50,414 bases of DNA from a virus. Taxonomy: Duplodnaviria > Heunggongvirae > Uroviricota > Caudoviricetes. Within the stretch, counting starts at the first letter, position 1; each line of letters opens with the position of its first letter. This document shows, piece after piece, positions 4,131 to 43,072 of this stretch. The stretch lies in IMG/VR virus record IMGVR_UViG_2718217859_000006. One strand, given 5' to 3'. Position numbers and translations under genes: made by a program. The notes under the pieces are model-generated. The model was not told the DNA's origin. It saw only the letters and a program-made list of their open reading frames with translations, and ran no database searches.

Positions 4131-4223
4131 TTTGTTTTAACCTCATGACAGATTTAAGGATGAACAAATCCCTGCCATTGCTGGCATATAAGAATGAAAC
4201 CGGATATTTATTACGGAACTGTT

Positions 4224-21178: not shown

Positions 21179-21232
21179 TGTAACCGGCTCATTTAAACCG
21201 TCTGGTCTGTTTCCTCCGGCTCTACAAAAATA

Positions 21233-21910
21233 ATGTCCATCATTTTTAATGGACACTATCGTATGAAACACCGGACCTGGATCACTGAAGCTTTACGTCT
21301 TCACTTTGAAGAACATTTACCCCGGGTTGTGGCCGGGCGTCGCCTGGGTGTACCAAAATCAACAGTTTGTAGTATGTTCGTGCGCTTTCGGAGAGCTGGC
21401 CTTTCGTGGCCTTTGCCCGCAGGCATGTCGGAGCAGGAACTTGATGCCTGCCTTTACGGACAATTTTCCACGGTACCAGTCGTACGTCCTGAAAGCACCG
21501 TTATATCCGAAGCCCCCGTGGTAAAAAAACGTCCCCGGCGGCCCAACTTCCCTTATGAGTTTAAAATCGCCTTAGTGGAGCAGTCACTGCAGCCCGGAGC
21601 CTGTGTGGCGCAGATCGCCCGGGAAAACGGAATCAACGATAACCTGCTCTTCAACTGGCGCCATCAATACCGGAAAGGTGGCCTGCTGCCTTCCGGAAAA
21701 AATATGCCGGCACTGCTTCCCGTGACGTTAACGCCGGAGCCGGATAATAAAATCCCGGCCCCCGCACAGGAACCAGAGCAGATAAATACACCGTCCGACA
21801 GTCTGTGTTGTGAGCTGGTTCTGCCGGCCGGAACTCTCAGGCTTAAAGGTAAACTGACGCCGGCGTTATTACAGACACTTATCCGCGAAATAAAAGGGAG
21901 CAGCCACTGA
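21233..21910 (+). CDS. IS66-family accessory protein TnpA (orf1)
   Basis: 225-aa ORF, first of three co-oriented IS ORFs. Confidence 0.75.
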   Translation: MSIIFNGHYRMKHRTWITEALRLHFEEHLPRVVAGRRLGVPKSTVCSMFVRFRRAGLSWPLPAGMSEQELDACLYGQFSTVPVVRPESTVISEAPVVKKRPRRPNFPYEFKIALVEQSLQPGACVAQIARENGINDNLLFNWRHQYRKGGLLPSGKNMPALLPVTLTPEPDNKIPAPAQEPEQINTPSDSLCCELVLPAGTLRLKGKLTPALLQTLIREIKGSSH

Positions 21911-22257
21911 TGATATCTCTCCCTGCAGGTTCGCGTATCTGGCTGGTTGCAGGTATCACCGATATGCGAAATGGCTTTAACGGCCTGGCATCAAAAGTTC
22001 AGAACGTCCTGAAGGATGACCCGTTCTCCGGACACCTGTTCATCTTCCGCGGACGCCGGGGTGACCAGATAAAAGTGTTGTGGGCTGACAGTGACGGACT
22101 GTGCCTCTTCACCAAACGCCTGGAGCGGGGCCGCTTCGTCTGGCCAGTCACCCGTGACGGCAAGGTGCACCTTACTCCGGCTCAGTTATCCATGCTTCTT
22201 GAAGGTATCAACTGGAAGCACCCGAAACGAACGGAACGCGCTGGAATCCGCATATAA
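21910..22257 (+). CDS. IS66-family TnpB (orf2)
   Basis: 115 aa MISLPAGSRIWLVAGITDMRNGFNGLA...; start overlaps orf1 stop (ATGA). Confidence 0.85.
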   Translation: MISLPAGSRIWLVAGITDMRNGFNGLASKVQNVLKDDPFSGHLFIFRGRRGDQIKVLWADSDGLCLFTKRLERGRFVWPVTRDGKVHLTPAQLSMLLEGINWKHPKRTERAGIRI

Positions 22258-22276
22258 CCCGTTGTAAAGTGAGGAT

Positions 22277-23848
22277 ATGGACACCTCACTTGCTCATGAG
22301 AACGCCCGCCTGCGGGCACTGTTGCAGACGCAACAGGACACCATCCGCCAGATGGCTGAATACAACCGCCTGCTCTCACAGCGGGTGGCGGCTTATGCTT
22401 CCGAAATCAACCGGCTGAAGGCGCTGGTTGCGAAACTGCAACGTATGCAGTTCGGTAAAAGCTCAGAAAAACTTCGTGCAAAAACCGAACGGCAGATACA
22501 GGAAGCACAGGAGCGAATCAGCGCACTTCAGGAAGAAATGGCGGAAACGCTGGGTGAGCAATATGACCCGGTACTGCCATCCGCCCTGCGCCAGTCTTCA
22601 GCCCGTAAACCGTTACCGGCCTCACTTCCCCGTGAAACCCGGGTTATCCGGCCGGAAGAGGAATGCTGTCCTGCCTGTGGTGGTGAACTCAGTTCTCTGG
22701 GATGTGATGTGTCAGAGCAACTGGAGCTTATCAGCAGCGCCTTTAAGGTTATCGAAACACAACGTCCGAAACAGGCCTGTTGCCGGTGCGACCATATCGT
22801 GCAGGCACCAGTACCTTCAAAACCCATTGCACGCAGTTATGCCGGAGCGGGGCTTCTGGCCCATGTTGTCACCGGGAAATATGCAGACCATCTGCCGTTA
22901 TACCGCCAGTCAGAAATATACCGTCGTCAGGGAGTGGAGCTGAGCCGTGCCACACTGGGGCGCTGGACAGGTGCTGTTGCTGAACTGCTGGAGCCGCTGT
23001 ATGACGTCCTGCGCCAGTATGTGCTGATGCCCGGTAAAGTCCATGCTGATGATATCCCCGTCCCGGTCCAGGAGCCGGGCAGCGGTAAAACCCGGACAGC
23101 CCGGCTGTGGGTCTACGTCCGTGATGACCGTAACGCCGGTTCACAGATGCCCCCGGCGGTCTGGTTCGCGTACAGTCCGGACCGGAAAGGTATCCATCCA
23201 CAAAATCACCTGGCCGGTTACAGCGGTGTGCTTCAGGCCGATGCTTACGGTGGTTACCGGGCGTTATACGAATCCGGCAGAATAACGGAAGCCGCGTGTA
23301 TGGCTCATGCCCGGAGAAAAATCCACGATGTGCATGCAAGAGCGCCCACCTACATCACCACGGAAGCCCTGCAGCGTATCGGTGAACTGTATGCCATCGA
23401 GGCAGAGGTCCGGGGCTGTTCAGCAGAACAGCGTCTGGCGGCAAGAAAAGCCAGAGCCGCGCCACTGATGCAGTCACTGTATGACTGGATACAGCAACAG
23501 ATGAAAACACTGTCGCGTCACTCAGATACGGCAAAAGCGTTCGCATACCTGCTGAAACAGTGGGATGCACTGAACGTGTACTGCAGTAATGGCTGGGTGG
23601 AAATCGACAACAACATCGCAGAGAACGCCTTACGGGGAGTGGCCGTAGGCCGGAAAAACTGGATGTTCGCGGGTTCCGACAGCGGTGGTGAACATGCGGC
23701 GGTGTTGTACTCGCTGATCGGCACATGCCGTCTGAACAATGTGGAGCCAGAAAAGTGGCTGCGTTACGTCATTGAACATATCCAGGACTGGCCGGCAAAC
23801 CGGGTACGCGATCTGTTGCCCTGGAAAGTTGATCTGAGCTCTCAGTAA
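22277..23848 (+). CDS. IS66-family transposase TnpC (orf3)
   Basis: 523 aa; N-terminal coiled coil, CxxC...CxxC zinc ribbon (CCPACGG, CCRCDH), DDE core. Confidence 0.9.
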
Positions 23849-23878
23849 ATATCAATACGGTTCTGACGAGTCGCTTAC

Positions 23879-24480: not shown

Positions 24481-26580
24481 ATGGGTTTTTCATCAGCCCG
24501 AAATTTGGGAAGGGACATATCGGCAGGATTTTCCCCACCACGTCGCATGCCGATTTCGGAGGCTGTTAAAAAATTCATGCGTGTTCCCAAGGGGGCTGGT
24601 AACTCGGTGCCATGGGATCCTGAACTGACACCCTACATCATTGAGCCCATGAACTGCCTGGCATCGCGTGAATACGATGCGGTGATTTTTGTTGGTCCTG
24701 CGCGAACAGGGAAGACCATTGGTCTGATCGATGGATGGATTGTCTATACCATCGTTTGCGATCCTTCGGACATGCTCGTTGTGCAGATGACCGAAGATAA
24801 GGCCCGCGAGCATTCTAAAAAGCGCCTCGACAGAACGTTCAGAAGCAGTGCGGCGGTAAAGAAAAGAATGAGTCCACGTCGTAACGACAATAATGTCCAT
24901 GATAAGACGTTCAGGGATGGCTCGTTCCTTAAAATTGGTTGGCCCTCGGTCAACATTATGTCGTCGTCGGATTACCGGTTTGTCGCCTTAACCGATTACG
25001 ACCGTTTTCCGGAGAATATCGACAGCGAGGGTGATGGTTTCTCCCTGGCCTCAAAACGTACCACCACATTTATGTCCGCCGGGATGACTCTGGTGGAGAG
25101 CTCGCCGGGACGTGACATCTGCGACAGCAAATGGCGACGTAAGTCGCCTCATGAAGCGCCACCGACGACTGGTATTCTTTCCCTTTACAATCGTGGTGAC
25201 CGCCGCCGCTGGTACTGGTCATGTCCGCACTGCGGTGAATATTTTCAGCCAGCCATGGATGCCATGACCGGCTACCGTAATGAACCGGATCCCTTTAAAG
25301 CCAGTGAGGCGGCGTATCTACTTTGCCCGCACTGCAGCGGCATTATCACTGCGGAGAAAAAGCGTGAGCTCAATAGTGCAGGAGTCTGGTTGCGTGAAGG
25401 TCAGGTCATTGATCGTAACGGCAACGTTTCCGGTGAACCGCGCCGCTCCCGTATCGCCAGTTTCTGGATGGAAGGGCCAGCTGCTGCGTATCAGACCTGG
25501 GCGCAACTGGTTTACAAATTACTGACTGCAGAACAGGAGTATGAAGCGACAGGAAGCGAAGAAACACTCAGGGCGGTTATCAACACCGACTGGGGATTGC
25601 CTTATCTTCCTCGTGCCAGCATGGAGCAACGAAAAAGTGAACTGCTTGAGCAGCGGGCAGAGCCAGTTCCTTCCCGCAGTGTGCCGGATGGCATTAATTT
25701 CCTTGTGGCGACAGTGGATGTGCAGGCGGGACGTCATCGCCGTTTTGTGGTTCAGGTAACGGGCTATGGCAGTCGTGGCGAACGCTGGATTATTGATCGT
25801 TACAACATCACGCAGTCATTGCGCAGTGACTGCGACGGGGAGAGCCAGCGAATTGATCCGGCCAGCTATCCGGAAGACTGGGATGTCCTGCTGACGGATG
25901 TTTTTCATAAAAGCTGGCCGCTGGCCTCCGATCCTTCTCAACAAATGCGACTGATGGCAATGGCGGTGGACTCCGGCGGTGAAGACGGGGTCACTGATAA
26001 TGCCTATAAATTCTGGCGTCGTTGCCGTCGTGATGGCCTTGGTAAACGTATTTACCTGTTTAAGGGTGACAGCATCCGGCGCGCAAAACTGATCAGCCGT
26101 ACATTCCCTGATAACACCGGACGAACGGGCCGCCGGGCGCAGGCCGCAGGTGATGTGCCGCTCTGGCTTCTTCAGACGGATGCCCTGAAAGACCGGGTGA
26201 ATAACGCGTTATGGCGTGACTCGCCAGGTCCAGGCTATGTGCATTTCCCTGACTGGCTGGGGAGCTGGTTTTACGACGAACTGACGTATGAAGAGCGGAG
26301 CAGTGACGGGAAATGGAGTAAGCCGGGTCGCGGTGCCAACGAAGCTTTTGACCTGATGGTGTATGCCGAGGCTCTGGTCATTCTGCATGGATACGAAAAG
26401 ATCCGCTGGCCGGATGCACCGGAGTGGGCGAGCCGGGAAACCTGGCTGGAGTGTGTCCAGGACAGTACTGAACCGTCATCCTCACCGGAACCGGTATCCA
26501 CGCCTGTTAAAAAACAAAAACGGAAGAAAACAGTAACTGACGATGTTAACCCCTGGCTGACTTCCGGAGGATGGTTATGA
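24481..26580 (+). CDS. Terminase large subunit (gpA family)
   Basis: 699 aa; Walker A-like GPARTGKT; size and position typical of the lambda-family large terminase. Confidence 0.9.
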   Translation: MGFSSARNLGRDISAGFSPPRRMPISEAVKKFMRVPKGAGNSVPWDPELTPYIIEPMNCLASREYDAVIFVGPARTGKTIGLIDGWIVYTIVCDPSDMLVVQMTEDKAREHSKKRLDRTFRSSAAVKKRMSPRRNDNNVHDKTFRDGSFLKIGWPSVNIMSSSDYRFVALTDYDRFPENIDSEGDGFSLASKRTTTFMSAGMTLVESSPGRDICDSKWRRKSPHEAPPTTGILSLYNRGDRRRWYWSCPHCGEYFQPAMDAMTGYRNEPDPFKASEAAYLLCPHCSGIITAEKKRELNSAGVWLREGQVIDRNGNVSGEPRRSRIASFWMEGPAAAYQTWAQLVYKLLTAEQEYEATGSEETLRAVINTDWGLPYLPRASMEQRKSELLEQRAEPVPSRSVPDGINFLVATVDVQAGRHRRFVVQVTGYGSRGERWIIDRYNITQSLRSDCDGESQRIDPASYPEDWDVLLTDVFHKSWPLASDPSQQMRLMAMAVDSGGEDGVTDNAYKFWRRCRRDGLGKRIYLFKGDSIRRAKLISRTFPDNTGRTGRRAQAAGDVPLWLLQTDALKDRVNNALWRDSPGPGYVHFPDWLGSWFYDELTYEERSSDGKWSKPGRGANEAFDLMVYAEALVILHGYEKIRWPDAPEWASRETWLECVQDSTEPSSSPEPVSTPVKKQKRKKTVTDDVNPWLTSGGWL

Positions 26581-26789: not shown

Positions 26790-28297
26790 TGGCAATTCTT
26801 GATGATGTGATTGGCGTTTTTTCACCAGGATGGAAAGCGGCAAGGCTGCGTTCCCGTGCGGTGATCCAGGCTTATGAGGCCGTAAAAACGACACGGACAC
26901 ACAAAGCCCGGCGGGAAAACCGAACTGCCGACCAGTTAAGCCAGTACGGGGCCGTGTCGTTACGTGAGCAGGCCCGTTACCTTGATAACAACCACGATCT
27001 GGTTATTGGTGTATTTGACAAGCTGGAAGAACGGGTGGTGGGGAAAAACGGGATTATTGTCGAGCCACATCCGGTATTACGCAATGGGGCCATTGCCCGT
27101 GATCTGGCAGCGGAGATACGCACCCGATGGAGTGAATGGTCTGTCAGTCCGGAAGTCACCGGGCAGTTTACCCGTCCGATGCTGGAACGTCTGATGCTGC
27201 GTACCTGGCTGCGCGATGGTGAGGTGTTTGCCCAGATGGTTTCCGGGCGCATAAACAGCCTGACGCCTTCTGCCGGTGTTCATTTCTGGCTGGAGGCGCT
27301 CGAGCCGGACTTTATTCCCATGACCAGTGATGAGAGCAACAGGCTGAATCAGGGCGTGTTTGTTGATGACTGGGGGCGTCCCGAAAAATATCTGGTGTAT
27401 AAAAGCCGTCCCGTATCCGGGCGGCAGATGGAAACCAAAGAAGTGGATGCAGAGCGAATGCTGCATCTTAAATTTGTTCGCCGTCTGCACCAGATGCGCG
27501 GGACGTCTTTGTTGTCCGGTGTGCTGATCCGCCTCAGTGCCCTGAAAGAGTATGAAGATTCTGAGCTGACTGCAGCAAGGATCGCCGCTGCTCTGGGGAT
27601 GTACATCCGGAAAGGCGACGGGCAGAGCTATGAACCGGATGGTAATGGCAGCAAGGAGAATGAACGCGAGCTTACCATTCAGCCAGGCATTATTTACGAC
27701 GATCTGAAACCCGGCGAAGAAATCGGAATGGTGAAGTCGGATCGTCCCAATCCTAACCTTGAAACTTTTCGTAATGGTCAGTTGCGTGCCGTGGCGGCGG
27801 GCAGTCGTCTGAGTTTTTCCAGTACGGCACGCAACTATAACGGCACTTACAGCGCCCAGCGTCAGGAACTGGTTGAGTCTACTGATGGCTACCTGATCCT
27901 GCAGGACTGGTTTATTGGTGCCGTCACCCGCCCGATGTATCGTGCCTGGCTGAAACAGGCTGTGGCATCCGGTGTTATCAGGCTACCCCGCGATCTTGAC
28001 CGTTCTTCACTGTATACCGCGGTGTATTCCGGACCGGTGATGCCGTGGATTGACCCTGTTAAGGAGGCTGAGGCCTGGAAAATCCAGATTCGTGGTGGAG
28101 CGGCGACAGAATCAGACTGGGTACGTGCTGGTGGTCGTAATCCGGATGATGTCAAACGTCGGCGCAAGGCCGAAATTGATGAAAACCGCAAGCTGGATCT
28201 GGTATTTGATACCGATCCGGCCAGTGATAAAGGAGGCAGCAGTGCCGCAACGAAACGACAGGAGCCGCAGCACACCGACGACCAGTCCGAAGAATAA
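26789..28297 (+). CDS. Portal protein
   Basis: 502 aa from ATG overlapping the W stop; size and position between W and the head protease. Confidence 0.85.
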   Translation: MAILDDVIGVFSPGWKAARLRSRAVIQAYEAVKTTRTHKARRENRTADQLSQYGAVSLREQARYLDNNHDLVIGVFDKLEERVVGKNGIIVEPHPVLRNGAIARDLAAEIRTRWSEWSVSPEVTGQFTRPMLERLMLRTWLRDGEVFAQMVSGRINSLTPSAGVHFWLEALEPDFIPMTSDESNRLNQGVFVDDWGRPEKYLVYKSRPVSGRQMETKEVDAERMLHLKFVRRLHQMRGTSLLSGVLIRLSALKEYEDSELTAARIAAALGMYIRKGDGQSYEPDGNGSKENERELTIQPGIIYDDLKPGEEIGMVKSDRPNPNLETFRNGQLRAVAAGSRLSFSSTARNYNGTYSAQRQELVESTDGYLILQDWFIGAVTRPMYRAWLKQAVASGVIRLPRDLDRSSLYTAVYSGPVMPWIDPVKEAEAWKIQIRGGAATESDWVRAGGRNPDDVKRRRKAEIDENRKLDLVFDTDPASDKGGSSAATKRQEPQHTDDQSEE

Positions 28298-28310
28298 TTC
28301 CTGGTTCAGG

Positions 28311-29687
28311 ATGCAGGCTGGTCACCAGAGTGACGCGGATATTTATATTTATGACGAGATTGGTTTCTGGGGTGTTACAGCGAAGCAGTTTATCAGTGAT
28401 CTGAATGCACTGGGCGATATCACCCACATTAATCTCCATATTAATTCACCGGGTGGCGATGTCTTTGAAGGCATCGCCATTTTTAATGCGCTGAAAACAC
28501 ATGGTGCGTCCATTACCGTTTATGTCGACGGTGTGGCGGCGTCAATGGCGTCGGTCATTGCGATGGTGGGAAACCCGGTCATTATGCCGGAAAACTCCTT
28601 CATGATGATTCATAAACCATTTGGATTTACGGGCGGTGATGCGGAGGACATGCGCACCTATGCCGACCTGCTCGATAAAGTTGAGGCGGTTCTGTTACCC
28701 GCTTATGCACAGAAAACCGGGAAAACCACCGATGAAATTACTGCCATGCTGGCGGATGAGACCTGGATGTCCGGTGCCGAATGTCTGGCACAGGGATTTG
28801 CTGATCAGGTGACACCAGCCGTTAAGGCAATGGCATGTATTCAGTCAAAACGTACAGAGGAATTTAAAAAGATGCCGGAATCCATTCGAAACATGATTAC
28901 TCCGCCACGCAACAGTGCTCCACGCGTACAGGATGATGAACCTGCAGCCTCCCGGACGCCAGTGCAGGCAGCAGCACCCGTGGTGGATGAAAACAGTATC
29001 CGTGCGCAGGTACTGGCAGAGCAAAAAGTGCGTGTAAACGGTATTAATGATCTGTTTGCCATGTTTGGCGGGCGTTATCAGACGCTGCAGGCCCAGTGTC
29101 TTGCCGATCCTGAATGTTCGCTGGAGCAGGCCCGTGAAAAGCTGTTGAACGAGATGGGGCGCGAGTCCACGCCATCCAATAAAAATACCCCGGCTCATAT
29201 TTATGCCGGTAACGGTAATTTTGTGGGGGAAGGGATTCGCCAGGCGCTGATGGCGCGTGCCGGATTTGAAAAAACCGAACGTGATAATGTCTACAACGGG
29301 ATGACCCTGCGTGAATATGCCCGTATGTCACTAACTGAACGGGGTATTGGGGTTTCCGGTTATAACCCGATGCAGATGGTCGGTGCGGCGTTCACACACA
29401 GTACGTCTGACTTCGGTAATATTCTGCTGGATGTTGCGAACAAAGCCATTCTGCAGGGCTGGGAAGATGCCCCTGAAACCTATGAACAGTGGACGCGGAA
29501 AGGTCAGTTGTCTGATTTTAAAATTGCCCATCGTGTGGGTATGGGGGCTTCAGTGCTCTGCGTCAGGTGCGTGAAGGGGCGGAATATAAATACGTCACCA
29601 CCGGAGATAAACAGGCCACTATTGCACTGGCGACCTATGGCGAGCTGTTCAGTATCACCCGTCAGGCCATTATCAATGATGATCTGA
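28311..29687 (+). CDS. Head maturation protease (ClpP/S49-like) fused to the N-terminal part of the major capsid protein; frame breaks near 29543-29547
   Basis: ClpP-like core (INSPGGDVFEG...MASVIAMVGN...MIHKP) then scaffold/capsid-like sequence; reading frame degenerates after a G5 run and the product continues in another frame. Confidence 0.7.
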   Translation: MQAGHQSDADIYIYDEIGFWGVTAKQFISDLNALGDITHINLHINSPGGDVFEGIAIFNALKTHGASITVYVDGVAASMASVIAMVGNPVIMPENSFMMIHKPFGFTGGDAEDMRTYADLLDKVEAVLLPAYAQKTGKTTDEITAMLADETWMSGAECLAQGFADQVTPAVKAMACIQSKRTEEFKKMPESIRNMITPPRNSAPRVQDDEPAASRTPVQAAAPVVDENSIRAQVLAEQKVRVNGINDLFAMFGGRYQTLQAQCLADPECSLEQAREKLLNEMGRESTPSNKNTPAHIYAGNGNFVGEGIRQALMARAGFEKTERDNVYNGMTLREYARMSLTERGIGVSGYNPMQMVGAAFTHSTSDFGNILLDVANKAILQGWEDAPETYEQWTRKGQLSDFKIAHRVGMGASVLCVRCVKGRNINTSPPEINRPLLHWRPMASCSVSPVRPLSMMI

Positions 29688-30268
29688 ATATGCTGACCGA
29701 TGTCCCGATGAAACTGGGCCGTGCAGCGAAATCCACTATTGCCGATCTGGTTTATGCCATTCTGACGTCTAACCCGAAAATCTCCACAGATAATGTAAGT
29801 CTGTTCGATAAAGCGAAACATGCAAACGTACTGGAGAGCGCTGCAATGGACGTGGCATCGCTGGATAAAGCCCGCCAGTTGATGCGCGTTCAGAAAGAGG
29901 GGGAGCGTCATCTGAATATTCGTCCTGCGTTCGTACTGGTACCGACGGCGATGGAGTCTGTTGCTAACCAGGTCATTCGCTCCTCAAGTGTCAAGGGGGC
30001 TGACATTAACGCCGGTATTATTAACCCGGTGAAAGATTTTGCGACCGTTATTGCAGAGCCTCGTCTTGATGATAACAGCCAGACCACCTTCTACCTGGCT
30101 GCGTCAAAAGGCTCCGATACGATTGAAGTGGCTTATCTCAACGGTGTGGATACGCCATATATTGATCAGATGGAGGGCTTCAGTGTGGATGGCGTGACAA
30201 CGAAAGTGCGTATTGACGCCGGTGTCGCGCCAGTTGATCACCGCGGTCTGGTGAAATGTACGGCGTAA
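29567..30268 (+). CDS. Major capsid protein, C-terminal portion (continuation of the previous gene after a 1-nt frameshift)
   Basis: Frame is open from about 29518; the two frames splice through a GGGGG run to give a continuous protease-capsid fusion. Confidence 0.65.
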   Translation: MREGAEYKYVTTGDKQATIALATYGELFSITRQAIINDDLNMLTDVPMKLGRAAKSTIADLVYAILTSNPKISTDNVSLFDKAKHANVLESAAMDVASLDKARQLMRVQKEGERHLNIRPAFVLVPTAMESVANQVIRSSSVKGADINAGIINPVKDFATVIAEPRLDDNSQTTFYLAASKGSDTIEVAYLNGVDTPYIDQMEGFSVDGVTTKVRIDAGVAPVDHRGLVKCTA

Positions 30269-30354
30269 ACGTCGCAGACAACAACTCTGATGGCCCGTAA
30301 GGGCTTTTTTTGTACCTGAAATCAGCCCCTGAACGGGGCTGTGCGGAGACAGTT

Positions 30355-30678
30355 ATGGCAAAGAATTTTGTAGAAGAAGGAAAAACGGTGGCGATTGTTG
30401 CCAGTGCAGCCATCTGCAGCGGAGAACTGGTGCAGGTGGGCGATGTTTTTGCGGTGGCGCTGACCGATATTCCACAGGGTGAAACAGGCGACGGCATGAC
30501 CGAAGGTGTGTTTATGCTGCCTAAGCTGAAAACGGATGACATGAAAACGGGTAAGAAGGTTTATCTGAAGTCCGGAAAAGTTCAGCTGACTAACAGCGGC
30601 TCTGATCCGCTGGTCGGGGTTGTCTGGGCAGATGCCGGAACCAGTGCAGAAGAAGTGCCGGTAAAACTCAATGTCTGA
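30355..30678 (+). CDS. Small phage head protein (possible decoration/head-completion protein)
   Basis: 107 aa from Met; position immediately after the capsid gene. Confidence 0.5.
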   Translation: MAKNFVEEGKTVAIVASAAICSGELVQVGDVFAVALTDIPQGETGDGMTEGVFMLPKLKTDDMKTGKKVYLKSGKVQLTNSGSDPLVGVVWADAGTSAEEVPVKLNV

Positions 30679-30946
30679 TCCCTTTTCCCGGCTGGCAGCG
30701 CGTATGGATGCTATCACGGTTAGAAAGATGGGAAAGACAGCCTCGATTAATGATGTCGATATGACTGTGATCCCGGGAGAAACACTGGCAGAGCTGAATG
30801 CTCTGTCCGGACCTGCGGTCTCTCTGGTGGTGTTTTCTTCGGGATACCGCCCACGGCGCGGGGATCGCGTTGTTTATGACGGACAACAATGGACGGTCAC
30901 ACGGCATGAACGCTTTAACGGTAAGCCAATGATCTTTATTGAGTAA
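30671..30946 (+). CDS. Head-tail adaptor/joining protein
   Basis: 91-aa ORF in the head-tail connector position. Confidence 0.55.
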   Translation: MSDPFSRLAARMDAITVRKMGKTASINDVDMTVIPGETLAELNALSGPAVSLVVFSSGYRPRRGDRVVYDGQQWTVTRHERFNGKPMIFIE

Positions 30947-30957
30947 AGAGGTGTGGG

Positions 30958-31536
30958 ATGAAGGGGCTTGAGAATGCCATCCGCAATCTGAACAGCCTTG
31001 ATACCCGTATGGTGCCACAGGCCAGCGCATGGGCGATAAACCGTGTGGCACAGAAAGCGGTCTCGGTTACCACCCGGCAGGTTGCCGGGAATACCGTTGC
31101 GGGAGATAACCAGGTGAAAGGGATCCCCCTGAAACTGGTACGTCAGCGTGTCCGGGTGTTTAAAGCCAGTCCGTCAGGAAAAATGACGGCCAGGATCCGC
31201 GTTAACCGGGGCAATCTGCCTGCCATTAAGCTGGGGACAGCCCGGGTCAGACTGGCCCGGCGTGGTGGAAAACTGCAGTACCGTGGCAGTGTGCTGAAGG
31301 TGGGTAAATATCTTTTCCGGGATGCGTTTATTCAGCAACTGGCGAATGGTCGCTGGCATGTGATGCGGCGTATTGATGGCAAAAATCGTTACCCCATTGA
31401 TGTGGTGAAAATCCCGCTGTCCGGACAGCTGACACAGGCATTTGAAGATGCCCGCGACCGCATCATTGCTGCGGAAATGCCGAAACAGCTGGGGTATGCA
31501 CTGAAACAACAACTGAGGTTATGGCTGACCCGATGA
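30958..31536 (+). CDS. Tail completion protein (lambda Z-like)
   Basis: 192 aa, the same length as lambda Z as recalled; position before the U-like gene. Confidence 0.6.
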   Translation: MKGLENAIRNLNSLDTRMVPQASAWAINRVAQKAVSVTTRQVAGNTVAGDNQVKGIPLKLVRQRVRVFKASPSGKMTARIRVNRGNLPAIKLGTARVRLARRGGKLQYRGSVLKVGKYLFRDAFIQQLANGRWHVMRRIDGKNRYPIDVVKIPLSGQLTQAFEDARDRIIAAEMPKQLGYALKQQLRLWLTR

Positions 31537-31934
31537 ACCGACATACACAAATCCGCCAGGTCGTACTGGCACGCCTTCGGGAACAGTGTAGAGACAGCGC
31601 CACGTTTTTTGACGGGCTTCCGGCATTTGTTGATGCGCAGGAACTGCCTGCCGTGGCGGTGTGGCTGAGTGATGCTCAGTACACCGGAAAAATGACGGAT
31701 GAAGATGACTGGCAGGCTGTTCTGCATATTGCTGTCTTCATCCGGGCACAGGCACCGGATTCAGAGCTGGATATGTGGATGGAGAGCACCATTTTCCCGG
31801 CCCTGAATGATGTACCAGCACTTTCCGGACTCATCGACACCCTGATCCCACTCGGTTTTAACTATCAACGTGATAATGAGATGGCCACCTGGGCGATGGC
31901 GGAAATCACGTACCAGATCACGTACACGAATTAA
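31521..31934 (+). CDS. Tail terminator protein (lambda U-like)
   Basis: 137 aa, immediately upstream of the major tail protein. Confidence 0.7.
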   Translation: MADPMNRHTQIRQVVLARLREQCRDSATFFDGLPAFVDAQELPAVAVWLSDAQYTGKMTDEDDWQAVLHIAVFIRAQAPDSELDMWMESTIFPALNDVPALSGLIDTLIPLGFNYQRDNEMATWAMAEITYQITYTN

Positions 31935-31944
31935 GGAGGTGGTA

Positions 31945-32688
31945 ATGACCACACCAAATCCACTGGCAAAAACGAAAGGTGCGGGAACGACGTTCTGGAT
32001 GTATACCGGCAAGGGCGATGCGTTTGCGAACCCTTTATCGGACACTGACTGGCTGCGTCTTGCGATGGTGAAGGATCTGCAACCTGGCGAAATGACCGCT
32101 GATGCAGAAGATGACACTTATCTCGATGATGAAGATGCAGACTGGAAAACGACAACCCAGGGGCAGAAATCCGTTGGTGATACTTCGGCGACGCTGGCCT
32201 GGCGTCCGGGTGACAGCGGGCAGAAAAAACTGGTTCAGTTGTTCGACTCCGGTGAAGTCTGCGCGTTTCGTATCAAATATCCCAACAGCACTGTTGATGT
32301 TTTCCGTGGCTGGTTGAGCTCACTGGGTAAAACCATTGCCTCAAAAGACGTGATGACCCGCACTGTGAAAATCAGCGGTGTGGGGCGTCCGTATCTGGCA
32401 GAGGAAGGCACTGAAACCGTGAGCGTTACCGGGCTGACAGTATCACCGGCATCTGCCAGTGTAAAAGTGGGAGCAACCACCACGCTGACCTTTACAGTAA
32501 AACCTGACGGAGCCAGTGACAAAGCGATCAGTGTGCATTCGTCAGATCCACAGACTGCCACGGTTACCCTGAACGGACTTGTGGCCACGGTAAAAGGCGT
32601 GAAGCAGGGCAGTGTCAGCATTGTGGGCATGACCGCTGACGGGAATTTTGTGGCTGTGGCTGCGGTGACTGTCAGCGCAGCAGGTTAA
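31945..32688 (+). CDS. Major tail protein V with C-terminal Ig-like (Big_2) domain
   Basis: 247 aa from ATG with AAGGAGG SD; C-terminal TVSPASASVKVGATTTLTFTVKPDGASDKAISVHSSDPQTATV is a Big_2-type fold. Confidence 0.85.
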   Translation: MTTPNPLAKTKGAGTTFWMYTGKGDAFANPLSDTDWLRLAMVKDLQPGEMTADAEDDTYLDDEDADWKTTTQGQKSVGDTSATLAWRPGDSGQKKLVQLFDSGEVCAFRIKYPNSTVDVFRGWLSSLGKTIASKDVMTRTVKISGVGRPYLAEEGTETVSVTGLTVSPASASVKVGATTTLTFTVKPDGASDKAISVHSSDPQTATVTLNGLVATVKGVKQGSVSIVGMTADGNFVAVAAVTVSAAG

Positions 32689-32708
32689 CAGGACGATACT
32701 CATCATTT

Positions 32709-32733
32709 GCCCCGGTTATTCGGGGCTTTTTTG
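32709..32733 (+). terminator. Hairpin with T-tract between V and G (possible attenuator)
   Basis: GCCCCGGTTATTCGGGGC followed by TTTTTTG, 20 nt after the V stop. Confidence 0.5.
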
Positions 32734-32745
32734 CAGGTGGAGAAC

Positions 32746-33135
32746 ATGATGTTTCTGAAACAGGACACGTTTAATTATGAAAAACAGTCCGTAGTGCTCA
32801 GTGAGCTGTCCGGGCTGCAGAGAATTGAATATCTGACGTTTGTTCAGCAGCGAACGGCAAAGTTTGATGCCGGGGAGGGAGAACTGCCGGAGGCTGAACG
32901 ACAGATTGCTTTTCTGCGGATGGGGATGGATATCAATGCCTGGCTGGTTTCCCGCTCACTGTGGAATGCGGAACAGTCTCAGGATGTTGAGACGCTTTAC
33001 GCATCCGTTATTACAACATGGTCGTATGATGCCCTGGGGGCGGGGGCGGAGATGGTTCTGTCGCTGAGCGGTATGGGGGCCATTGATAATGCCGGGGATT
33101 TGGAGCATGAGGTGCTGACGCCGGAAAAGTCCTGA
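32746..33135 (+). CDS. Tail assembly chaperone G
   Basis: About 130 aa; position between V and the tape-measure gene; followed by an overlapping -1 frame ORF (T). Confidence 0.8.
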   Translation: MMFLKQDTFNYEKQSVVLSELSGLQRIEYLTFVQQRTAKFDAGEGELPEAERQIAFLRMGMDINAWLVSRSLWNAEQSQDVETLYASVITTWSYDALGAGAEMVLSLSGMGAIDNAGDLEHEVLTPEKS

Positions 33136-33143
33136 CGCGGGAA

Positions 33144-33473
33144 ATGCAGTTTGTCATGCGGCTTGCCCGGGAGTTCCGGCGGGCAGACTGGCGGCGGATG
33201 CTGTCGGAAATGTCGGCCACTGAGCTTGGTGAGTGGGGCGATTATTTCCGGATGCAGAGCTTCAGTGATGTGTGGATGGATGCGCAGTTTGCCTCGCTGA
33301 AGGCATTGATCGTGAGAATGGTGTCCGGCAGCAGTGATGCTGCGGTGGCTGATTTCAGCCTTTTACCGGAAGAGAACGGGATACCGGAGCGAACGGACGA
33401 AGAACTGATGCATCTTGGGGAAGGTATTTCCGGAGGTGTGCGTTATGGACCAGATAGCCAACCTGGTCATTGA
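33144..33473 (+). CDS. Tail assembly protein T segment (expected to be made as a G-T fusion by -1 frameshift)
   Basis: The -1 frame is open across the G stop; conserved G/GT arrangement of long-tailed phages; T overlaps the H start. Confidence 0.7.
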   Translation: MQFVMRLAREFRRADWRRMLSEMSATELGEWGDYFRMQSFSDVWMDAQFASLKALIVRMVSGSSDAAVADFSLLPEENGIPERTDEELMHLGEGISGGVRYGPDSQPGH

Positions 33474-36183
33474 TTTGGGGATTGATGCGGCAGAGTTTAA
33501 AAATGAAATTCCCCGTATCAAAAACCTTCTGAATGGTGCAGCCAGCGATGCAGAACGGTCTTCTGCCCGTATGCAGCGTTTTATGGAGCGTCAGACTCAG
33601 GCCGCCCGGCAGACAACGCAGGCGGCGTCTTCGGCTGCAACAGCCGCATCCGTCCATGCGCAGACGGTGGAGAAGAACGCACAGGCTCATGAACGCATGG
33701 CCCGCGAGGTGGAGAAAACCCGCCAGCGTATGGAGGCACTGAGCCAGAAAATGCGCGAGGAACAGGCGCAGGCCATGGCTCTGGCGGAGGCTCAGGATAA
33801 AGCAGCTGCTGCGTTTTATCGTCAGATTGACAGTGTGAAACAGGCCAGTGCGGGGCTGCAGGAATTACAGCGTATTCAGCAGCAGATCCGACAGGCCAGA
33901 AACAGTGGCGGGATTGGTCAGCAGGATTATCTGGCGCTGATTTCTGAGGTTACGGCGAAAACCCGTGTTCTTACGCAGGCTGAGGAAGAGGCTACCCGAC
34001 AGAAAGTGGCGTTTATCCGTCAGCTTAAAGAGCAGGCAACCCGCCAGAATCTTTCTTCTTCTGAGTTGCTTCGTGCTAAGGCTGCCCAGCTGGGGGTAAG
34101 CAGTGCTGCAGAAGTGTATATCCGCAAAATGGAGCAGGCAGGAAAAGCCACGCATTCGCTGGGTCTGAAAAGTGCAGCGGCCCGCCAGGAGATAGGCGTT
34201 CTGATAGGTGAACTGGCCCGCGGCAATTTAGGGGCGCTGAGGGGATCCGGGATAACGCTGGCTAACCGTGCCGGATGGATAGACACTCTGATGTCACCGA
34301 AAGGCATGATGCTTGGCGGGGTTATTGGCGGTATTTCCGCGTCCGTCTATGGTCTGGGTAAAGCCTGGTATGACGGTCAGAAGGAGGGGGAAGAATTTAA
34401 CCGCCAGTTGTCGCTGACGGGGCATTATGCCGGAGTCACTGCCGGGCAGCTGTGGACGCTCAGTCGTGCTATTTCCGGGAATGGTATCACGCAACATGCT
34501 GCAGCCGGTGCGCTGGCTCAGGTGGTGGGGAGTGGTGCATTTCGTGGAAACGATATCGGTATGGTGGCGAGAGCTGCCGCACAGATGGAGCGATCGGTTG
34601 GCCAGTCGGTCAGCGATACCATAAATCAGTTTAAGCGGCTGAAGGATGATCCTGTAAATGCCGCGAAGGCTCTGGACAATGAGCTGCATTTTCTTACTGC
34701 CACTCAGCTTGAGCAGATACGTGTCCTTGGGGATCAGGGACGGTCCAGTGATGCTGCACGGATAGCCATGTCTGCACTGGCAGAGGAAACCGGTCGGCGT
34801 ACTGCGGATATTGATAATAACCTCAATGCGCTTGGCAGTACGCTGAAGTATCTGTCTGATTTGTGGAGTCGTTTCTGGGATGCGGCCATGAATATTGGTC
34901 GTGAAGACTCGCTGGATGAACAGATTGCCGCTTTACAGGAGAAAGTGTCGCGGGCGAAAAGACTCCCCTGGACGGCATCATCTTCTCAGGTTGAATACGA
35001 TCAGCAGCGTCTTAACGATCTTCAGGAGAAAAAACGCCAGAAGGATTTGCAGGATGCAAAAGAGCAGGCAGAGCGGAATTATCAGGAGCAACAGAAACGA
35101 CGTAATGCTGAAAATGCTGCACTGAACCGGATGAATGAAACGGAAGCAGCACGACATCAGCGTGAAATTGCGCGTATTAATTCCATGCAGTACGCCGATC
35201 AGGCTGTCAGGGATGCAGCGATACAACGTGAAAATGAACGTTACGAGAAAGCCCTGGCATCCGGTAAGAAAAAAACACGCGAAACCCGTAATGATGAGGC
35301 CACCAGGTTATTGCTGCAGTACAGTCAGCAACAGGCACAGGTTGAAGGACAGATTGCTGCTGCAAGACAGTCAGCAGGCATTGCCACTGAAAAGATGACA
35401 GAAGCGCATAAACAGCTTCTGGCTCTGCAGCAGCGCATCAGCGATCTGGACGGGAAAAAACTGACGGCAGATGAAAAGAGTGTGCTGGCCCGTAAAGATG
35501 AACTGATTCAGGCACTGACGCTGCTGGATGTAAAACAGCAGGAGCTTCAGAAACAGACGGCACTCAACGATCTGAAGAAAAAAACAATTCAGCTGACCAG
35601 TCAACTGGCTGAAGAAGAGCGCGCTCAGCGTCAGCAACATGACCTGGATATCGCCACGGTGGGTATGGGTGATCAGCAGCGGCAGCGATATCAGGTACAA
35701 CTGAGTCTTCGCCAGAAATACCAGCAACAGCTGGAGCAGTTGAGGCGGGATAGTGAGCAGAAAGGGACATATAACACGGATGACTACAGAAAGGCCGAGC
35801 AGGCGCTGACGGAGAGCCTGAACCGACAACTGAATGAGAATCGCCGTTACTGGCAACAGCTTGAAGTTGTGCAGGGTAACTGGAAAAACGGAGTCCTGCG
35901 TGCATTTCAGGATTTTACCGTGGATGCAGACAATACGGCAGGAACAGCAGAACAGGTGTTCTCGTCAGCCTTCAGCAACATGGGAAATGGCCTGGCAACT
36001 TTTGTCACTACCGGCAAACTCAACTTCAAATCCTTCACCTCTTCGGTGCTGTCAGATATGGCGAAAATCCTGGCGCAGGCAACCATGATGAAATCGATAA
36101 AAGGGATTGGCAGTGTACTGGGATTTGATCTCAGCAGCCTTTCCCTGAATGCCAATGGGGGATTTATCAGTCTGCTGATTTGA
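33445..36183 (+). CDS. Tail tape-measure protein H (frame breaks near the 3' end)
   Basis: 912 aa from ATG with GGAGG SD; long coiled-coil, Ala/Gln-rich; the conserved C-terminal motif GEAGPEAILPL sits in the next ORF in a different frame. Confidence 0.85.
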   Translation: MDQIANLVIDLGIDAAEFKNEIPRIKNLLNGAASDAERSSARMQRFMERQTQAARQTTQAASSAATAASVHAQTVEKNAQAHERMAREVEKTRQRMEALSQKMREEQAQAMALAEAQDKAAAAFYRQIDSVKQASAGLQELQRIQQQIRQARNSGGIGQQDYLALISEVTAKTRVLTQAEEEATRQKVAFIRQLKEQATRQNLSSSELLRAKAAQLGVSSAAEVYIRKMEQAGKATHSLGLKSAAARQEIGVLIGELARGNLGALRGSGITLANRAGWIDTLMSPKGMMLGGVIGGISASVYGLGKAWYDGQKEGEEFNRQLSLTGHYAGVTAGQLWTLSRAISGNGITQHAAAGALAQVVGSGAFRGNDIGMVARAAAQMERSVGQSVSDTINQFKRLKDDPVNAAKALDNELHFLTATQLEQIRVLGDQGRSSDAARIAMSALAEETGRRTADIDNNLNALGSTLKYLSDLWSRFWDAAMNIGREDSLDEQIAALQEKVSRAKRLPWTASSSQVEYDQQRLNDLQEKKRQKDLQDAKEQAERNYQEQQKRRNAENAALNRMNETEAARHQREIARINSMQYADQAVRDAAIQRENERYEKALASGKKKTRETRNDEATRLLLQYSQQQAQVEGQIAAARQSAGIATEKMTEAHKQLLALQQRISDLDGKKLTADEKSVLARKDELIQALTLLDVKQQELQKQTALNDLKKKTIQLTSQLAEEERAQRQQHDLDIATVGMGDQQRQRYQVQLSLRQKYQQQLEQLRRDSEQKGTYNTDDYRKAEQALTESLNRQLNENRRYWQQLEVVQGNWKNGVLRAFQDFTVDADNTAGTAEQVFSSAFSNMGNGLATFVTTGKLNFKSFTSSVLSDMAKILAQATMMKSIKGIGSVLGFDLSSLSLNANGGFISLLI

Positions 36184-36509
36184 GTCGTTACAGTGGCACG
36201 GTGGTTAACCGTCCGACGTTTTTTGCTTTTGCAAAAGGCGCGGGTGTGATGGGGGAAGCTGGACCTGAAGCCATTCTGCCACTGCGTCGTGGTGCTGACG
36301 GTAAGCTGGGGGTTGTGGCGGATATTGGTGGTTCAGGTATGGCGATGTTTGCCCCGCAGTACAACATCGAGATCAATAACGATGGCACGAACGGGCAGAT
36401 AGGTCCGGCTGCCCTGAAGGTGGTTTATGACCTTGGGAAAAAAGCGGCAGCGGACTTTATGCAACAGCAGGCCCGTGATGGTGGTCGGTTAAGTGGAGCA
36501 TATCGGTAA
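36180..36509 (+). CDS. Tape-measure protein C-terminal segment, separated from H by a 1-nt frameshift
   Basis: Contains TVVNRPTFFAFAKGAGVMGEAGPEAILPL; its frame is open upstream through the last ~10 codons of H; frames splice through a GGGGG run at about 36157-36161. Confidence 0.65.
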   Translation: MSRYSGTVVNRPTFFAFAKGAGVMGEAGPEAILPLRRGADGKLGVVADIGGSGMAMFAPQYNIEINNDGTNGQIGPAALKVVYDLGKKAAADFMQQQARDGGRLSGAYR

Positions 36510-36838
36510 TGGAGACGTTTCACTGGAAAGTGCGCCCGGATATGAATGTGGTATCAGAGCCGAAAGTGGTGACAGTGAAGCTGGGCGATGGTTATGAACA
36601 GCGTCGTGCGGCGGGACTGAATAACCAGTTGTCGACTTACAGCGTGACGATACGTGTTCGTAAATGTGAACACCCATCTTTAAAAGCCTTTCTGGAACGG
36701 CACGGTGGCGTCCGCGCATTTCAGTGGACGCCACCTTATGACTGGAAGCCGATCAGGGTGGTTTGTCGTAAATGGTCGGCAAGCGTGGGGGCGTTGTGGG
36801 TAACCATAACGGCAGATTTTGAACAGGTCGTGGCATAG
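36509..36838 (+). CDS. Minor tail protein M
   Basis: 109 aa, the same length and position as lambda M. Confidence 0.85.
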   Translation: METFHWKVRPDMNVVSEPKVVTVKLGDGYEQRRAAGLNNQLSTYSVTIRVRKCEHPSLKAFLERHGGVRAFQWTPPYDWKPIRVVCRKWSASVGALWVTITADFEQVVA

Positions 36839-36847
36839 GAGTCTCTG

Positions 36848-37546
36848 ATGCAGGATATTCCACAGGAAACACATCATGAGACGACACGCCTCACTCAGTC
36901 AGCCCAGGTGGTGCTCTGGGAAATCGATCTGACAGTGGTCGGTGGAGAACGTTATTTTTTCTGTAATGAGCAGAACGAAAAAGGTGAGCCGGTCACCTGG
37001 CAGGGGCGACAGTATCAGGCGTATCCCATTCAGGGGACGGGATTTGAACTGAACGGCAAGGGCAGTGCTGCCCGTCCGACACTGACGGTTTCTAACCTGC
37101 ACGGCATGGTCACCGGGATGGCGGAAGATCTGCAGAGTCTGGTCGGAGGAACGGTGGTCCGGCGTAAGGTTTACGCCCGTTTTCTGGATGCGGTGAACTT
37201 CGTCAACGGAAACAGTGACGCCGATCCGGAGCAGGAGGTGATCAGCCGCTGGCGCATCGAGCAGTGCAGCGAACTGAGCGCGGTGAGTGCCTCTTTTGTA
37301 CTGTCCACGCCGACGGAAACGGACGGTGCCGTTTTTCCGGGACGTATCATGCTGGCCAACACCTGCACCTGGACCTATCGCGGTGATGAGTGCGGTTATC
37401 ACGGTCCGGCGGTCGCGGATGAATATGATCAGCCGACGTCCGATATCACGAAGGATAAATGCAGCAAATGCCTGAGCGGCTGTAAGTTTCGCAATAACGT
37501 CGGCAACTTTGGCGGCTTCCTTTCCATTAACAAACTTTCACAGTGA
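36848..37546 (+). CDS. Minor tail protein L
   Basis: 232 aa, the same length and position as lambda L; C-terminal Cys cluster. Confidence 0.85.
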   Translation: MQDIPQETHHETTRLTQSAQVVLWEIDLTVVGGERYFFCNEQNEKGEPVTWQGRQYQAYPIQGTGFELNGKGSAARPTLTVSNLHGMVTGMAEDLQSLVGGTVVRRKVYARFLDAVNFVNGNSDADPEQEVISRWRIEQCSELSAVSASFVLSTPTETDGAVFPGRIMLANTCTWTYRGDECGYHGPAVADEYDQPTSDITKDKCSKCLSGCKFRNNVGNFGGFLSINKLSQ

Positions 37547-38295
37547 ATCCCATGACAGAGACAGAATCAGCGATTCTGGCGCACGCCCGGCGATGTGCGC
37601 CAGCGGAGTCGTGCGGCTTCGTGGTGAGAACACCGGAGGGGGAAAGATATTTTCCCTGCGTGAATATCTCCGGTGAGCCGGAGGAGTATTTCCGGATGTC
37701 GCCGGAGGACTGGCTGCGGGCAGAGATGCAGGGTGAGATTGTGGCGCTGGTCCACAGCCACCCCGGTGGTCTGCCCTGGCTGAGTGAGACCGACCGGCGG
37801 CTGCAGGTGCAGAGTGATTTGCCGTGGTGGCTGGTTTGCCGGGGGGCGATTCACAAGTTCCGCTGTGTGCCACATCTTTCCGGGCGGCGCTTTGAGCACG
37901 GGGTGACGGACTGTTACACGCTGTTCCGGGATGCTTACCATCTGGCGGGGATTGAGATGCCGGATTTTCATCGCGAGGATGACTGGTGGCGTAACGGTCA
38001 GAATCTCTATCTGGATAATCTGGAGGCCACAGGGCTGTATCAGGTGCCGTTGTCAGCGGCGCAGCCGGGCGATGTGCTGCTGTGCTGTTTTGGTTCATCG
38101 GTGCCGAATCATGCCGCCATTTACTGTGGTGACAGCGAGCTGCTGCACCATATTCCTGAACAACTGAGCAAACGAGAGAGGTACACCGACAAATGGCAGC
38201 GACGCACACACTCCCTCTGGCGTCACCGGGAATGGCACGCATCTGCCTTTACGGGGATTTGCAACGATTTGGCCGCCGCATCGACCTTCGTGTGA
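37543..38295 (+). CDS. Tail assembly protein K (NlpC/P60 plus JAB/MPN-like domains), C-terminally extended
   Basis: JAMM-like motif VALVHSHPGG; NlpC/P60-like Cys-His region (GVTDCYTLFRDAYH, HAAIY); overlaps gene I by about 100 nt. Confidence 0.8.
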   Translation: MNPMTETESAILAHARRCAPAESCGFVVRTPEGERYFPCVNISGEPEEYFRMSPEDWLRAEMQGEIVALVHSHPGGLPWLSETDRRLQVQSDLPWWLVCRGAIHKFRCVPHLSGRRFEHGVTDCYTLFRDAYHLAGIEMPDFHREDDWWRNGQNLYLDNLEATGLYQVPLSAAQPGDVLLCCFGSSVPNHAAIYCGDSELLHHIPEQLSKRERYTDKWQRRTHSLWRHREWHASAFTGICNDLAAASTFV

Positions 38296-38864
38296 AAACG
38301 GGGGCTGAAGCCATCCGCGCACTGGCCACACAGCTCCCGGCGTTTCGTCAGAAACTGAGCGACGGCTGGTATCAGGTACGGATTGCCGGGCGGGACGTCA
38401 GCACGTCCGGGTTAACGGCGCAGTTACATGAGACTCTGCCTGACGGCGCTGTGATTCATATTGTTCCCAGAGTCGCCGGGGCCAAGTCAGGGGGCGTATT
38501 CCAGATTGTTCTGGGGGCTGCCGCCATTGCCGGATCATTCTTTACTGCCGGAGCCACCCTTGCAGCATGGGGGGCAGCCATTGGGGCCGGTGGTATGACC
38601 GGTATCCTGTTTTCTCTCGGTGCCAGTATGGTGCTCGGTGGTGTGGCGCAGATGCTGGCACCGAAAGCCAGGACGCCCACGGCAGCAAGTACAGATAACG
38701 GCAAACAGAACACCTATTTCTCCTCACTGGATAACATGGTTGCCCAGGGCAATGTTCTGCCCGTTCTGTACGGTGAAATGCGCGTGGGGTCGCGGGTGGT
38801 CTCTCAGGAGATCAGCACGGCAGACGAAGGGGATGGTGGTCAGGTTGTGGTGATTGGTCGCTGA
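38193..38864 (+). CDS. Tail assembly protein I
   Basis: 223 aa, the same length as lambda I; Gly/Ala-rich membrane-like central segment. Confidence 0.8.
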   Translation: MAATHTLPLASPGMARICLYGDLQRFGRRIDLRVKTGAEAIRALATQLPAFRQKLSDGWYQVRIAGRDVSTSGLTAQLHETLPDGAVIHIVPRVAGAKSGGVFQIVLGAAAIAGSFFTAGATLAAWGAAIGAGGMTGILFSLGASMVLGGVAQMLAPKARTPTAASTDNGKQNTYFSSLDNMVAQGNVLPVLYGEMRVGSRVVSQEISTADEGDGGQVVVIGR

Positions 38865-38923
38865 TGAAAAACGTTTATGTGAAACCGCCTCCGGGCGGTT
38901 TTGTCGTTTATGGAGCGTGAGGA

Positions 38924-41900: not shown

Positions 41901-42406
41901 ATGTGAATGCAAATTCAGGGACGCTCAACAATGTCACGATTAATGAAAACTGTCAGATTAAGGGGAAACTGTCAGCCAATCAGATTGAAGGCGATATTGT
42001 CAAAACGGTCAGCAAGTCTTTCCCCCGCACGAACAGTTATGCCAGTGGCACCATCACGGTAAGAATCAGTGATGATCAGAAATTTGACCGGCAGGTCATG
42101 ATACCGCCAGTGTTATTCCGCGGTGGTAAGCATGAGAATTTCAACAGTAATAACCAACAGTCATACTGGTATTCAACCTGCCGGTTAAGAGTGACCCGCA
42201 ATGGTCAGGAGATTTTTAATCAGTCCACGACGGATGCTCAGGGCGTATTTTCCTCAGTTATAGATATGCCTGCCGGACAGGGGACACTGACACTGACATT
42301 CACCGTATCTTCATCAGGAGCGAATAACTGGACACCAACAACCAGTATCAGCGATCTGCTGGTTGTGGTGATGAAGAAATCCACAGCAGGTATCAGTATC
42401 AGCTGA
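38924..42406 (+). CDS. Host specificity protein J (tail tip / central fibre)
   Basis: 1160 aa, lambda J-sized, immediately after I. Confidence 0.9.
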
Positions 42407-42423
42407 ATTTTATAACCCATAAC

Positions 42424-42447
42424 GGGCGTCAGAAATGACGCCTTTTT
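42424..42447 (+). terminator. Intrinsic terminator after J
   Basis: GGCGTCAGAAATGACGCC hairpin followed by TTTTTTATT. Confidence 0.6.
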
Positions 42448-42472
42448 TATTGCAGAAAAGCGAGAGGTAATT

Positions 42473-43072
42473 ATGCGTAAACTTTATGCCGCCATTTTGT
42501 CCGCAGCCATTTGTCTGGCCGTATCCGGTGCGCCTGCATGGGCGTCTGAACATCAGTCCACGCTGAGCGCGGGGTATCTTCATGCCTCGACGAACGTTCC
42601 CGGCAGCGATGATCTGAACGGGATTAACGTGAAATACCGTTATGAGTTTACGGACACACTGGGGATGGTGACGTCATTCAGCTATGCAGGAGACAAGAAT
42701 CGCCAGCTGACCCATTACAGCGATACCCGCTGGCATGAAGATTCCGTGCGTAACCGCTGGTTCAGCGTGATGGCGGGGCCGTCTGTGCGCGTGAATGAAT
42801 GGTTCAGCGCGTATGCGATGGCGGGTGTGGCTTACAGCCGTGTGTCGACTTTCTCCGGGGATTATCTTCGCGTAACTGACAACAAGGGGAAAACGCACGA
42901 TGTACTGACCGGAAGTGATGACGGTCGCCACAGCAACACGTCTCTGGCGTGGGGAGCTGGCGTGCAGTTTAACCCGACCGAATCCGTGGCCATTGATATT
43001 GCTTATGAAGGCTCCGGCAGTGGCGACTGGCGCACTGACGGTTTCATCGTGGGTGTCGGTTATAAGTTCTGA
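42473..43072 (+). CDS. lom: Lom/Ail-family outer-membrane beta-barrel protein
   Basis: 199 aa with signal peptide (MRKLYAAILSAAICLAVSGAPAWA) and C-terminal GVGYKF; own terminator at about 43097-43124. Confidence 0.9.
   Translation: MRKLYAAILSAAICLAVSGAPAWASEHQSTLSAGYLHASTNVPGSDDLNGINVKYRYEFTDTLGMVTSFSYAGDKNRQLTHYSDTRWHEDSVRNRWFSVMAGPSVRVNEWFSAYAMAGVAYSRVSTFSGDYLRVTDNKGKTHDVLTGSDDGRHSNTSLAWGAGVQFNPTESVAIDIAYEGSGSGDWRTDGFIVGVGYKF

Follow-up and report, generated by a model that had tools for sequence, protein, structure and literature searches.

The head modules of lambda and HK97 follow a well-established plan. In lambda (gpB portal, gpC protease, Nu3 scaffold, gpD and the capsid protein gpE) and in HK97 (gp4/gp5), a protease and a scaffold function act on an HK97-type capsid protein in prohead maturation, and protease and capsid protein are encoded by separate genes. 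A further arrangement is curated as NCBIfam family NF045540 (ClpP-like prohead protease/major capsid protein fusion protein, scaf_prot_MCP1). Head-module polyproteins of this kind assemble into proheads and are then trimmed by their own protease domain. The cultured phages mEp460 (gene 5, AFM76042.1), cdtI ('protease/scaffold protein', YP_001272518), phi458 and Tritos all carry members of NF045540, and a single protein-coding gene is annotated under each match in these and other cultured phages. In the alignment, the mEp460 record has one open frame that includes a run of six Gs (G6). A literature search found no paper on the ClpP-like protease/capsid fusion family.

Here, we analysed a stretch of 50,414 nucleotides (hereafter, the window), a lambdoid prophage of E. 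coli that occupies the Qin site and has a truncated ydfJ at its right end. Its best matches among 5,426 RefSeq complete E. coli genomes are 99.7-99.9% identical. The left half of the prophage carries Qin cargo (relBE, hokD and csp genes) and IS elements. The gene order then runs from terminase, a small head protein, portal, the fusion gene and DUF2190 to Z, U, V, G/T, tape measure, M, L, K, I, J, lom and tail fibre, and the flanking genes include a lambda-like gpA-type terminase, portal, Z, U, V, G/T, H, L, K, I and J. Both the gene order and the logic of head maturation resemble those of lambda and HK97, but the protease of the window is ClpP-like (Pfam CLP_protease) and forms one polypeptide with the capsid protein. 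The fusion gene lies between the portal and DUF2190 (Phage_cement_2) genes of this lambda-like head module, as judged from annotated relatives and from the gene calls of a contig described below. The homologues in cultured phages share this position and the domain order, belong to the same family and are 98.8-99.3% identical to the window at the nucleotide level over 2 kb. Their sequence at the site of interest is identical except for the length of one run: the cultured phages have G6 and one frame of 652/675 codons, whereas the window has five Gs (G5) and two frames. The features discussed here are as follows.

28242..30268, plus strand: protease/scaffold-like linker/major capsid fusion gene, interrupted; 2027 nt here versus 2028 nt in the intact gene, which is one 675-aa CDS in RefSeq relatives.
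28242..29687, plus strand: upstream frame with the protease, the linker and the beginning (about 60 aa) of the capsid domain, ending in 47 nonsense codons before the stop; from the ORF list and translation.
29543..29547, plus strand: G5 run, one base short of the G6 of intact copies, which encodes Gly-Gly (GGG GGC); from direct reading and alignments.
29522..30268, plus strand: -1 frame with the remaining capsid domain; the mechanical ORF runs from GTG 29567 to 30268 (233 aa) and matches Phage_capsid_4.
36157..36161, plus strand: second G5 run (G6 in relatives), in the tail tape measure gene; 33445-36183 encodes 912 aa instead of 1021, and the remainder extends to 36509.
21180..23878, plus strand: ISCro1 (IS66 family) insertion, a clone marker; 100% identical over 2699 bp to the copy in O26:H11 11368.

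Direct reading of the window gives GGGGG at 29543-29547 in the context gtgggtatGGGGGcttcag. The codons of the upstream frame start at positions divisible by 3, and this frame, open from 28050, reads ...DFKIAHRVGMG, followed by 47 out-of-frame residues (ASVLCVRCVKGRNINTSPPEINRPLLHWRPMASCSVSPVRPLSMMI) and a stop at 29685-29687. The -1 frame contains a TAA at 29519-29521, is open from 29522 to the stop at 30266-30268 and reads ...GYGGFSALRQVREGAEYKYV... across this region. Insertion of one G at the G5 run yields ...HRVGMGGFSALRQVREGAEYKYV..., which is identical to the sequence in intact homologues, and restores a fusion protein of 652 aa (from ATG 28311) or 675 aa (from GTG 28242). An initial annotation, made from the letters of the window alone, had described the G5 run together with the frames starting at 28311 and ending at 30268, and had predicted that a sixth G would join them. 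Reading and translation confirmed the run and the frames, and the predicted junction is the one found in the intact homologues.

Where the fusion gene starts is ambiguous, with RefSeq annotations of relatives placing it at GTG 28242 (675 aa) and phage records, including mEp460, at ATG 28311 (652 aa). The GTG start overlaps the end of the portal gene (28297) by 56 nt. The mechanical portal ORF starts at GTG 26717 (526 aa), earlier than the 502-aa portal protein annotated in relatives.

The repaired 652-aa protein matched NF045540 with 982.6 bits (cut-off 475), with aa 9-651 aligned to positions 2-651 of the 652 in the profile. Judged by this full-length match, the gene is a member of a known, curated family. 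The initial annotation had assigned a ClpP-like protease followed by a capsid protein, and Pfam agreed with both parts: CLP_protease matched at aa 23-168 (E = 7e-36) and Phage_capsid_4 at aa 352-649 (E = 4.3e-55), with Mu-like_gpT matching weakly. Additionally, NF045542 (ClpP-related head maturation protease) matched aa 9-167 with 217 bits, against a cut-off of 120. In a PDB sequence search with the repaired protein, ClpP chains matched the N-terminal part with E values down to 8e-16; the matches covered the ClpP part only, and none was found for the capsid part. The ClpP-type Ser and His motifs (...VAASMAS... and ...MIHKP...) are present by inspection, and the ClpP-like domain is predicted to have a catalytic role. 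The gene is an ordinary lambda-type head gene whose product, a single polyprotein, runs from a ClpP-like maturation protease through a scaffold-like linker to an HK97-type major capsid protein.

The break falls at aa 412. Since Phage_capsid_4 begins at aa 352, some 60 residues of the capsid domain precede the break, which is therefore not at the protease/capsid junction, and the N-terminal part of this domain is missing from the downstream 233-aa ORF. The single uninterrupted frame that defines NF045540 members is thus broken in the window, and it is present in an independent assembly of what appears to be the same clone (see below) and in about 99.7% of relatives.

Six Gs are the normal state of this site. 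Among RefSeq complete E. coli genomes, 1,822 records matched the site 69-mer. Among the matches listed, five were exact and carried G5 (E2865, CRE10, CEC01302, LR-17-1 and NCTC9699), and the non-exact matches spanned 70 bases and therefore had G6 (1817, about 99.7%). G6 was also found in 118/120 IMG/VR contigs with exact flanks, the other two carrying G5, and in 3/3 GTDB species representatives; no G7 allele occurred among these 120 IMG/VR contigs and three GTDB matches. Near relatives retrieved by a tail-fibre protein look-up all had G6 where they covered the capsid and tape-measure sites, although the clone itself was not among them; a look-up with the large terminase yielded just common lineages unrelated to the window. 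Alignment to the intact protease-capsid fusions of relatives, which the initial annotation had proposed, likewise gave G6 at the site and a single frame. No homologue was found that naturally stops here and is followed by a separately initiated capsid gene, and every fetched RefSeq G5 copy is labelled 'frameshifted' by PGAP. Three of these, EL118_RS11655 (NCTC9699), AABJ42_RS18225 (LR-17-1) and EL389_RS11440 (E2865), show the G6 to G5 change at the same position within an identical 69-mer. However, they differ from the window in prophage background and chromosomal site and lack the two marker residues described below, T144 and V240. In E2865, unlike in the window, the tape-measure run is intact where checked.

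A functional role for the shortened run, either as recoding (a programmed -1 ribosomal or transcriptional slip) or as a phase-variable G-tract switch for virion production, is extremely improbable. If tRNA-Gly slipped by -1 from GGG 29544-46 to GGG 29543-45, the product would carry the intact GMGGF exactly, and G5 does recur in unrelated strains. However, the zero frame reads atG GGG Gct and contains no X XXY YYZ heptamer, and the 93 nt downstream (29548-29640) have a minimum free energy of -20.7 kcal/mol, which is less stable than the mean of -24 for 200 shuffled sequences (z = +1.10). The position of the break inside the capsid domain, rather than at a domain boundary, also speaks against recoding, as does the lack of conservation of the out-of-frame arrangement: about 99.7% of RefSeq copies and the cultured phages are in frame with G6. 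The RVGMGGF motif is kept in a 77%-identical Stx-phage homologue and in Salmonella Fels-1. Because the Stx-phage gene keeps the peptide but encodes it with ATG GGC GGT and has no G run, the run reflects chance in codon choice rather than conservation of an element. For phase variation, the G5 allele is too rare (5/1822 RefSeq records among the matches listed and 2/120 IMG/VR contigs), G7 is absent from the 120 IMG/VR and three GTDB sequences, the sole longer run is a G8 in an assembly full of insertion errors, and six Gs are short for a contingency tract. Programmed frameshifting and phase variation were rejected on these grounds.

The strongest evidence on the state of the gene came from an independent assembly. 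The exact gpJ protein of the window was found in one place, contig AARGOA010000051.1 of the draft genome GCA_011948005.1; this contig is common to three samples. It is 19,046 bp long, and its start was placed at window position 23878, the right end of ISCro1. Such a start is expected of a short-read assembly with the same IS insertion, which suggests that this genome has the ISCro1 insertion of the window and is hence of the same clone. Aligned to window positions 28926-42923, the contig showed 14,000 bases against 13,998 in the window, with 0 mismatches and just two gaps, one at each G run. The differences are therefore confined to homopolymers, and the contig has G6 at both, giving an uninterrupted capsid fusion of 675 aa and a tape measure protein of 1021 aa.

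Public protein collections gave the same picture. The exact repaired 675-aa fusion protein, including T144 and V240, occurs on 17 public contigs (EET7295246.1 and others), and the exact repaired 1021-aa tape measure protein occurs on 99, including EET7295254.1. The latter lies eight accession numbers after EET7295246.1, consistent with an origin in the same assembly. Meanwhile, an exact look-up of the truncated products of 458, 481 and 912 aa among about 15 billion proteins returned none of them.

Two substitutions in the fusion gene, at 28740 and 29029, change A144 to T and A240 to V (652-aa numbering). T144 and V240 are missing from all 116-118 other fetched copies and from the best RefSeq matches. 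We considered whether A144T, A240V and the frameshift, three changes in 800 bp, might together represent real decay or a recombination patch, and rejected this because the contig of the same clone has 29029T and the repaired protein with both residues is found on 17 contigs. T144 and V240 are, on this sequence evidence, lineage markers in an intact gene. Both substitutions lie outside Dcm and Dam motifs, and 28740 and 29029 thus show no hint of consensus errors linked to methylation.

Other substitutions were clustered elsewhere in the window. Compared with OkiPb01701, there are 27 substitutions in about 690 bp of gpJ (window 39842-40528) and four in 39 bp near the start of lom (window 42676-42714), and both clusters look like recombination patches. 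The gpJ patch is shared with AARGOA010000051.1, and three near relatives (L154-L156) have OkiPb-type bases at the listed patch positions.

The second lesion lies in the tape measure gene, 6.6 kb downstream of the capsid lesion, and is the same G6 to G5 change. Over about 37 kb aligned with OkiPb01701, the nearest complete genome, the capsid and tape-measure G runs are the only single-base indels, both of -1. The A/T runs of at least six, the G5/C5 runs, the G6 runs at 37841 and 38569 and the C6 run at 47491 all agree. No shared flanking context accounted for the shortening of two G6 runs when the other two kept their length. The G5 of the tape measure gene is also uncommon, with 3/1538 RefSeq records (G749 and two O145 strains), and there was no overlap between the exact-G5 records for the two sites among the matches listed. 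Finding two rare lesions of one type together in the window therefore points to something peculiar to this assembly or this isolate.

A cause specific to the isolate would be real and very recent replication slippage, in which the change from G6 to G5 knocked out the capsid gene of a Qin-type prophage that was already in decay, with a second slippage in the tape measure gene. We regard this as unlikely, even though the window sequence as given has G5 and several observations favour a mutation over an error. The rate of indels increases exponentially as runs lengthen, and in E. coli G:C runs 5-8 bases long are true hot spots of -1 frameshifts (PMC8510543). The G5 allele is present on several backgrounds, for example IMG/VR contig L044 and the otherwise clean complete genomes of E2865 (98.4% identity), LR-17-1 and NCTC9699. 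The window has no other homopolymer discrepancy in the roughly 37 kb aligned with OkiPb01701, and is cleaner than a typical noisy long-read consensus. Prophage decay is also real in this group: ISCro1 is inserted here, and relatives carry independent lesions.

However, the spectrum of changes does not fit. In the 14 kb matched to the assembly of the same clone, there are 0 substitutions, and of the only four G6 runs two have lost one base. In mismatch-repair-defective E. coli mutation-accumulation lines, the ratio of substitutions to indels is about 7:1 per coding sequence (PMC8510543). Because substitutions exceed indels by this ratio even in such lines, two run deletions without a substitution would be an unlikely spectrum for real mutations, and are instead the pattern expected of consensus error. 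Moreover, there is no evident selection for knocking out a capsid or tail gene, and no other public assembly shows the truncated products, in contrast to the intact alleles of the lineage, seen 17 and 99 times. If the G5 alleles were nevertheless real, the GGG GGC pair and the tape-measure run might be recurrent slippage hot spots that repeatedly and independently kill virion production in Qin- and mEp460-type prophages of E. coli, and slippage at G runs would be a predictable first step of prophage domestication; we consider this very doubtful.

The relatives of the window illustrate how such prophages decay. OkiPb01701 has an internal stop (a nonsense codon) in minor tail protein L, equivalent to window position 36986. 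E2865 has a 10-bp deletion in the large terminase gene, equivalent to window 24955-24964, in addition to the capsid G5. These independent lesions indicate that Qin-type prophages are decaying in several ways. In related Qin-type prophages, loss of roughly 7 kb of head and tail genes has produced a 796-aa in-frame chimera that joins the protease-capsid gene, up to ...INPVKDFA, to the C-terminal part of minor tail protein L (L154, positions 2026-4416). We found this chimera on 37 contigs; in one source it bears the name 'phage minor tail protein L'.

In the window, the ISCro1 element is complete, with tnpA, tnpB and a 523-aa transposase ORF, and has the lysis/cargo region on one side and the small terminase (DUF1441) gene on the other. 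The insertion may cut the late genes off from their promoter or disturb the cos region, and might thus prevent phage production whatever the state of the two G runs. In O26:H11 11368, the identical copy interrupts xis instead.

The capsid G6 run also proved to be error-prone in public assemblies. The 233-aa fragment from the C-terminal part of the capsid protein appears as a gene of its own in 145 blocks of a public protein collection. We examined ten of these loci (L007-L016), and nine had G5. Six of the nine carried a further 1-nt deletion in a short or long homopolymer of the same gene, and the tenth locus had G8 and five other insertions. Judged from these sequences, the extra deletions and insertions are a signature of noisy reads. 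Similarly, IMG/VR contig L095 has G5 and two further G-run deletions within 6.4 kb. Since most of the examined cases combine G5 with other homopolymer deletions, the G6 run repeatedly gives rise to false calls of split capsid genes. Residual errors in long-read assemblies are predominantly homopolymer indels, mostly deletions (PMC12007338). The window crosses a 2.7-kb multicopy IS in one piece, and this unbroken span suggests that its source was a long-read assembly.

Taken together, the G5 run is best explained as a homopolymer under-call in the assembly, and the gene is most probably intact, with six Gs, in the organism. Consensus building would have dropped one G from the capsid G6 run, and the same type of error would have dropped one from the tape-measure G6 run. 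The initial annotation had left the choice between an inactivated capsid gene and a homopolymer error; these were indeed the alternatives that mattered, all relatives with an intact gene have G6, and sequencing error is clearly the likelier of the two because the assembly of the same clone has G6 and a second identical lesion lies 6.6 kb downstream. The identity of the gene, the exact site of the break, the normal G6 state and the intact copy in the independent assembly are established here, and from them we infer that the discrepancy came from sequencing rather than from two new mutations in the isolate.

At face value, annotation of the window would yield two pseudogenes, capsid and tape measure, and the prophage would be scored as unable to make virions. 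The main value of the present result is thus in quality control: the capsid and tape-measure 'pseudogenes' of the window should not be trusted without read support. There is no new biology here, whether the cause is artefact or mutation, since the family is known and identical G5 copies are already 'frameshifted' in RefSeq. If the G5 were real, it would still be an inactivating mutation of a routine sort, in a gene family that is well known. Most likely, the clone has its capsid and tape measure genes both intact.
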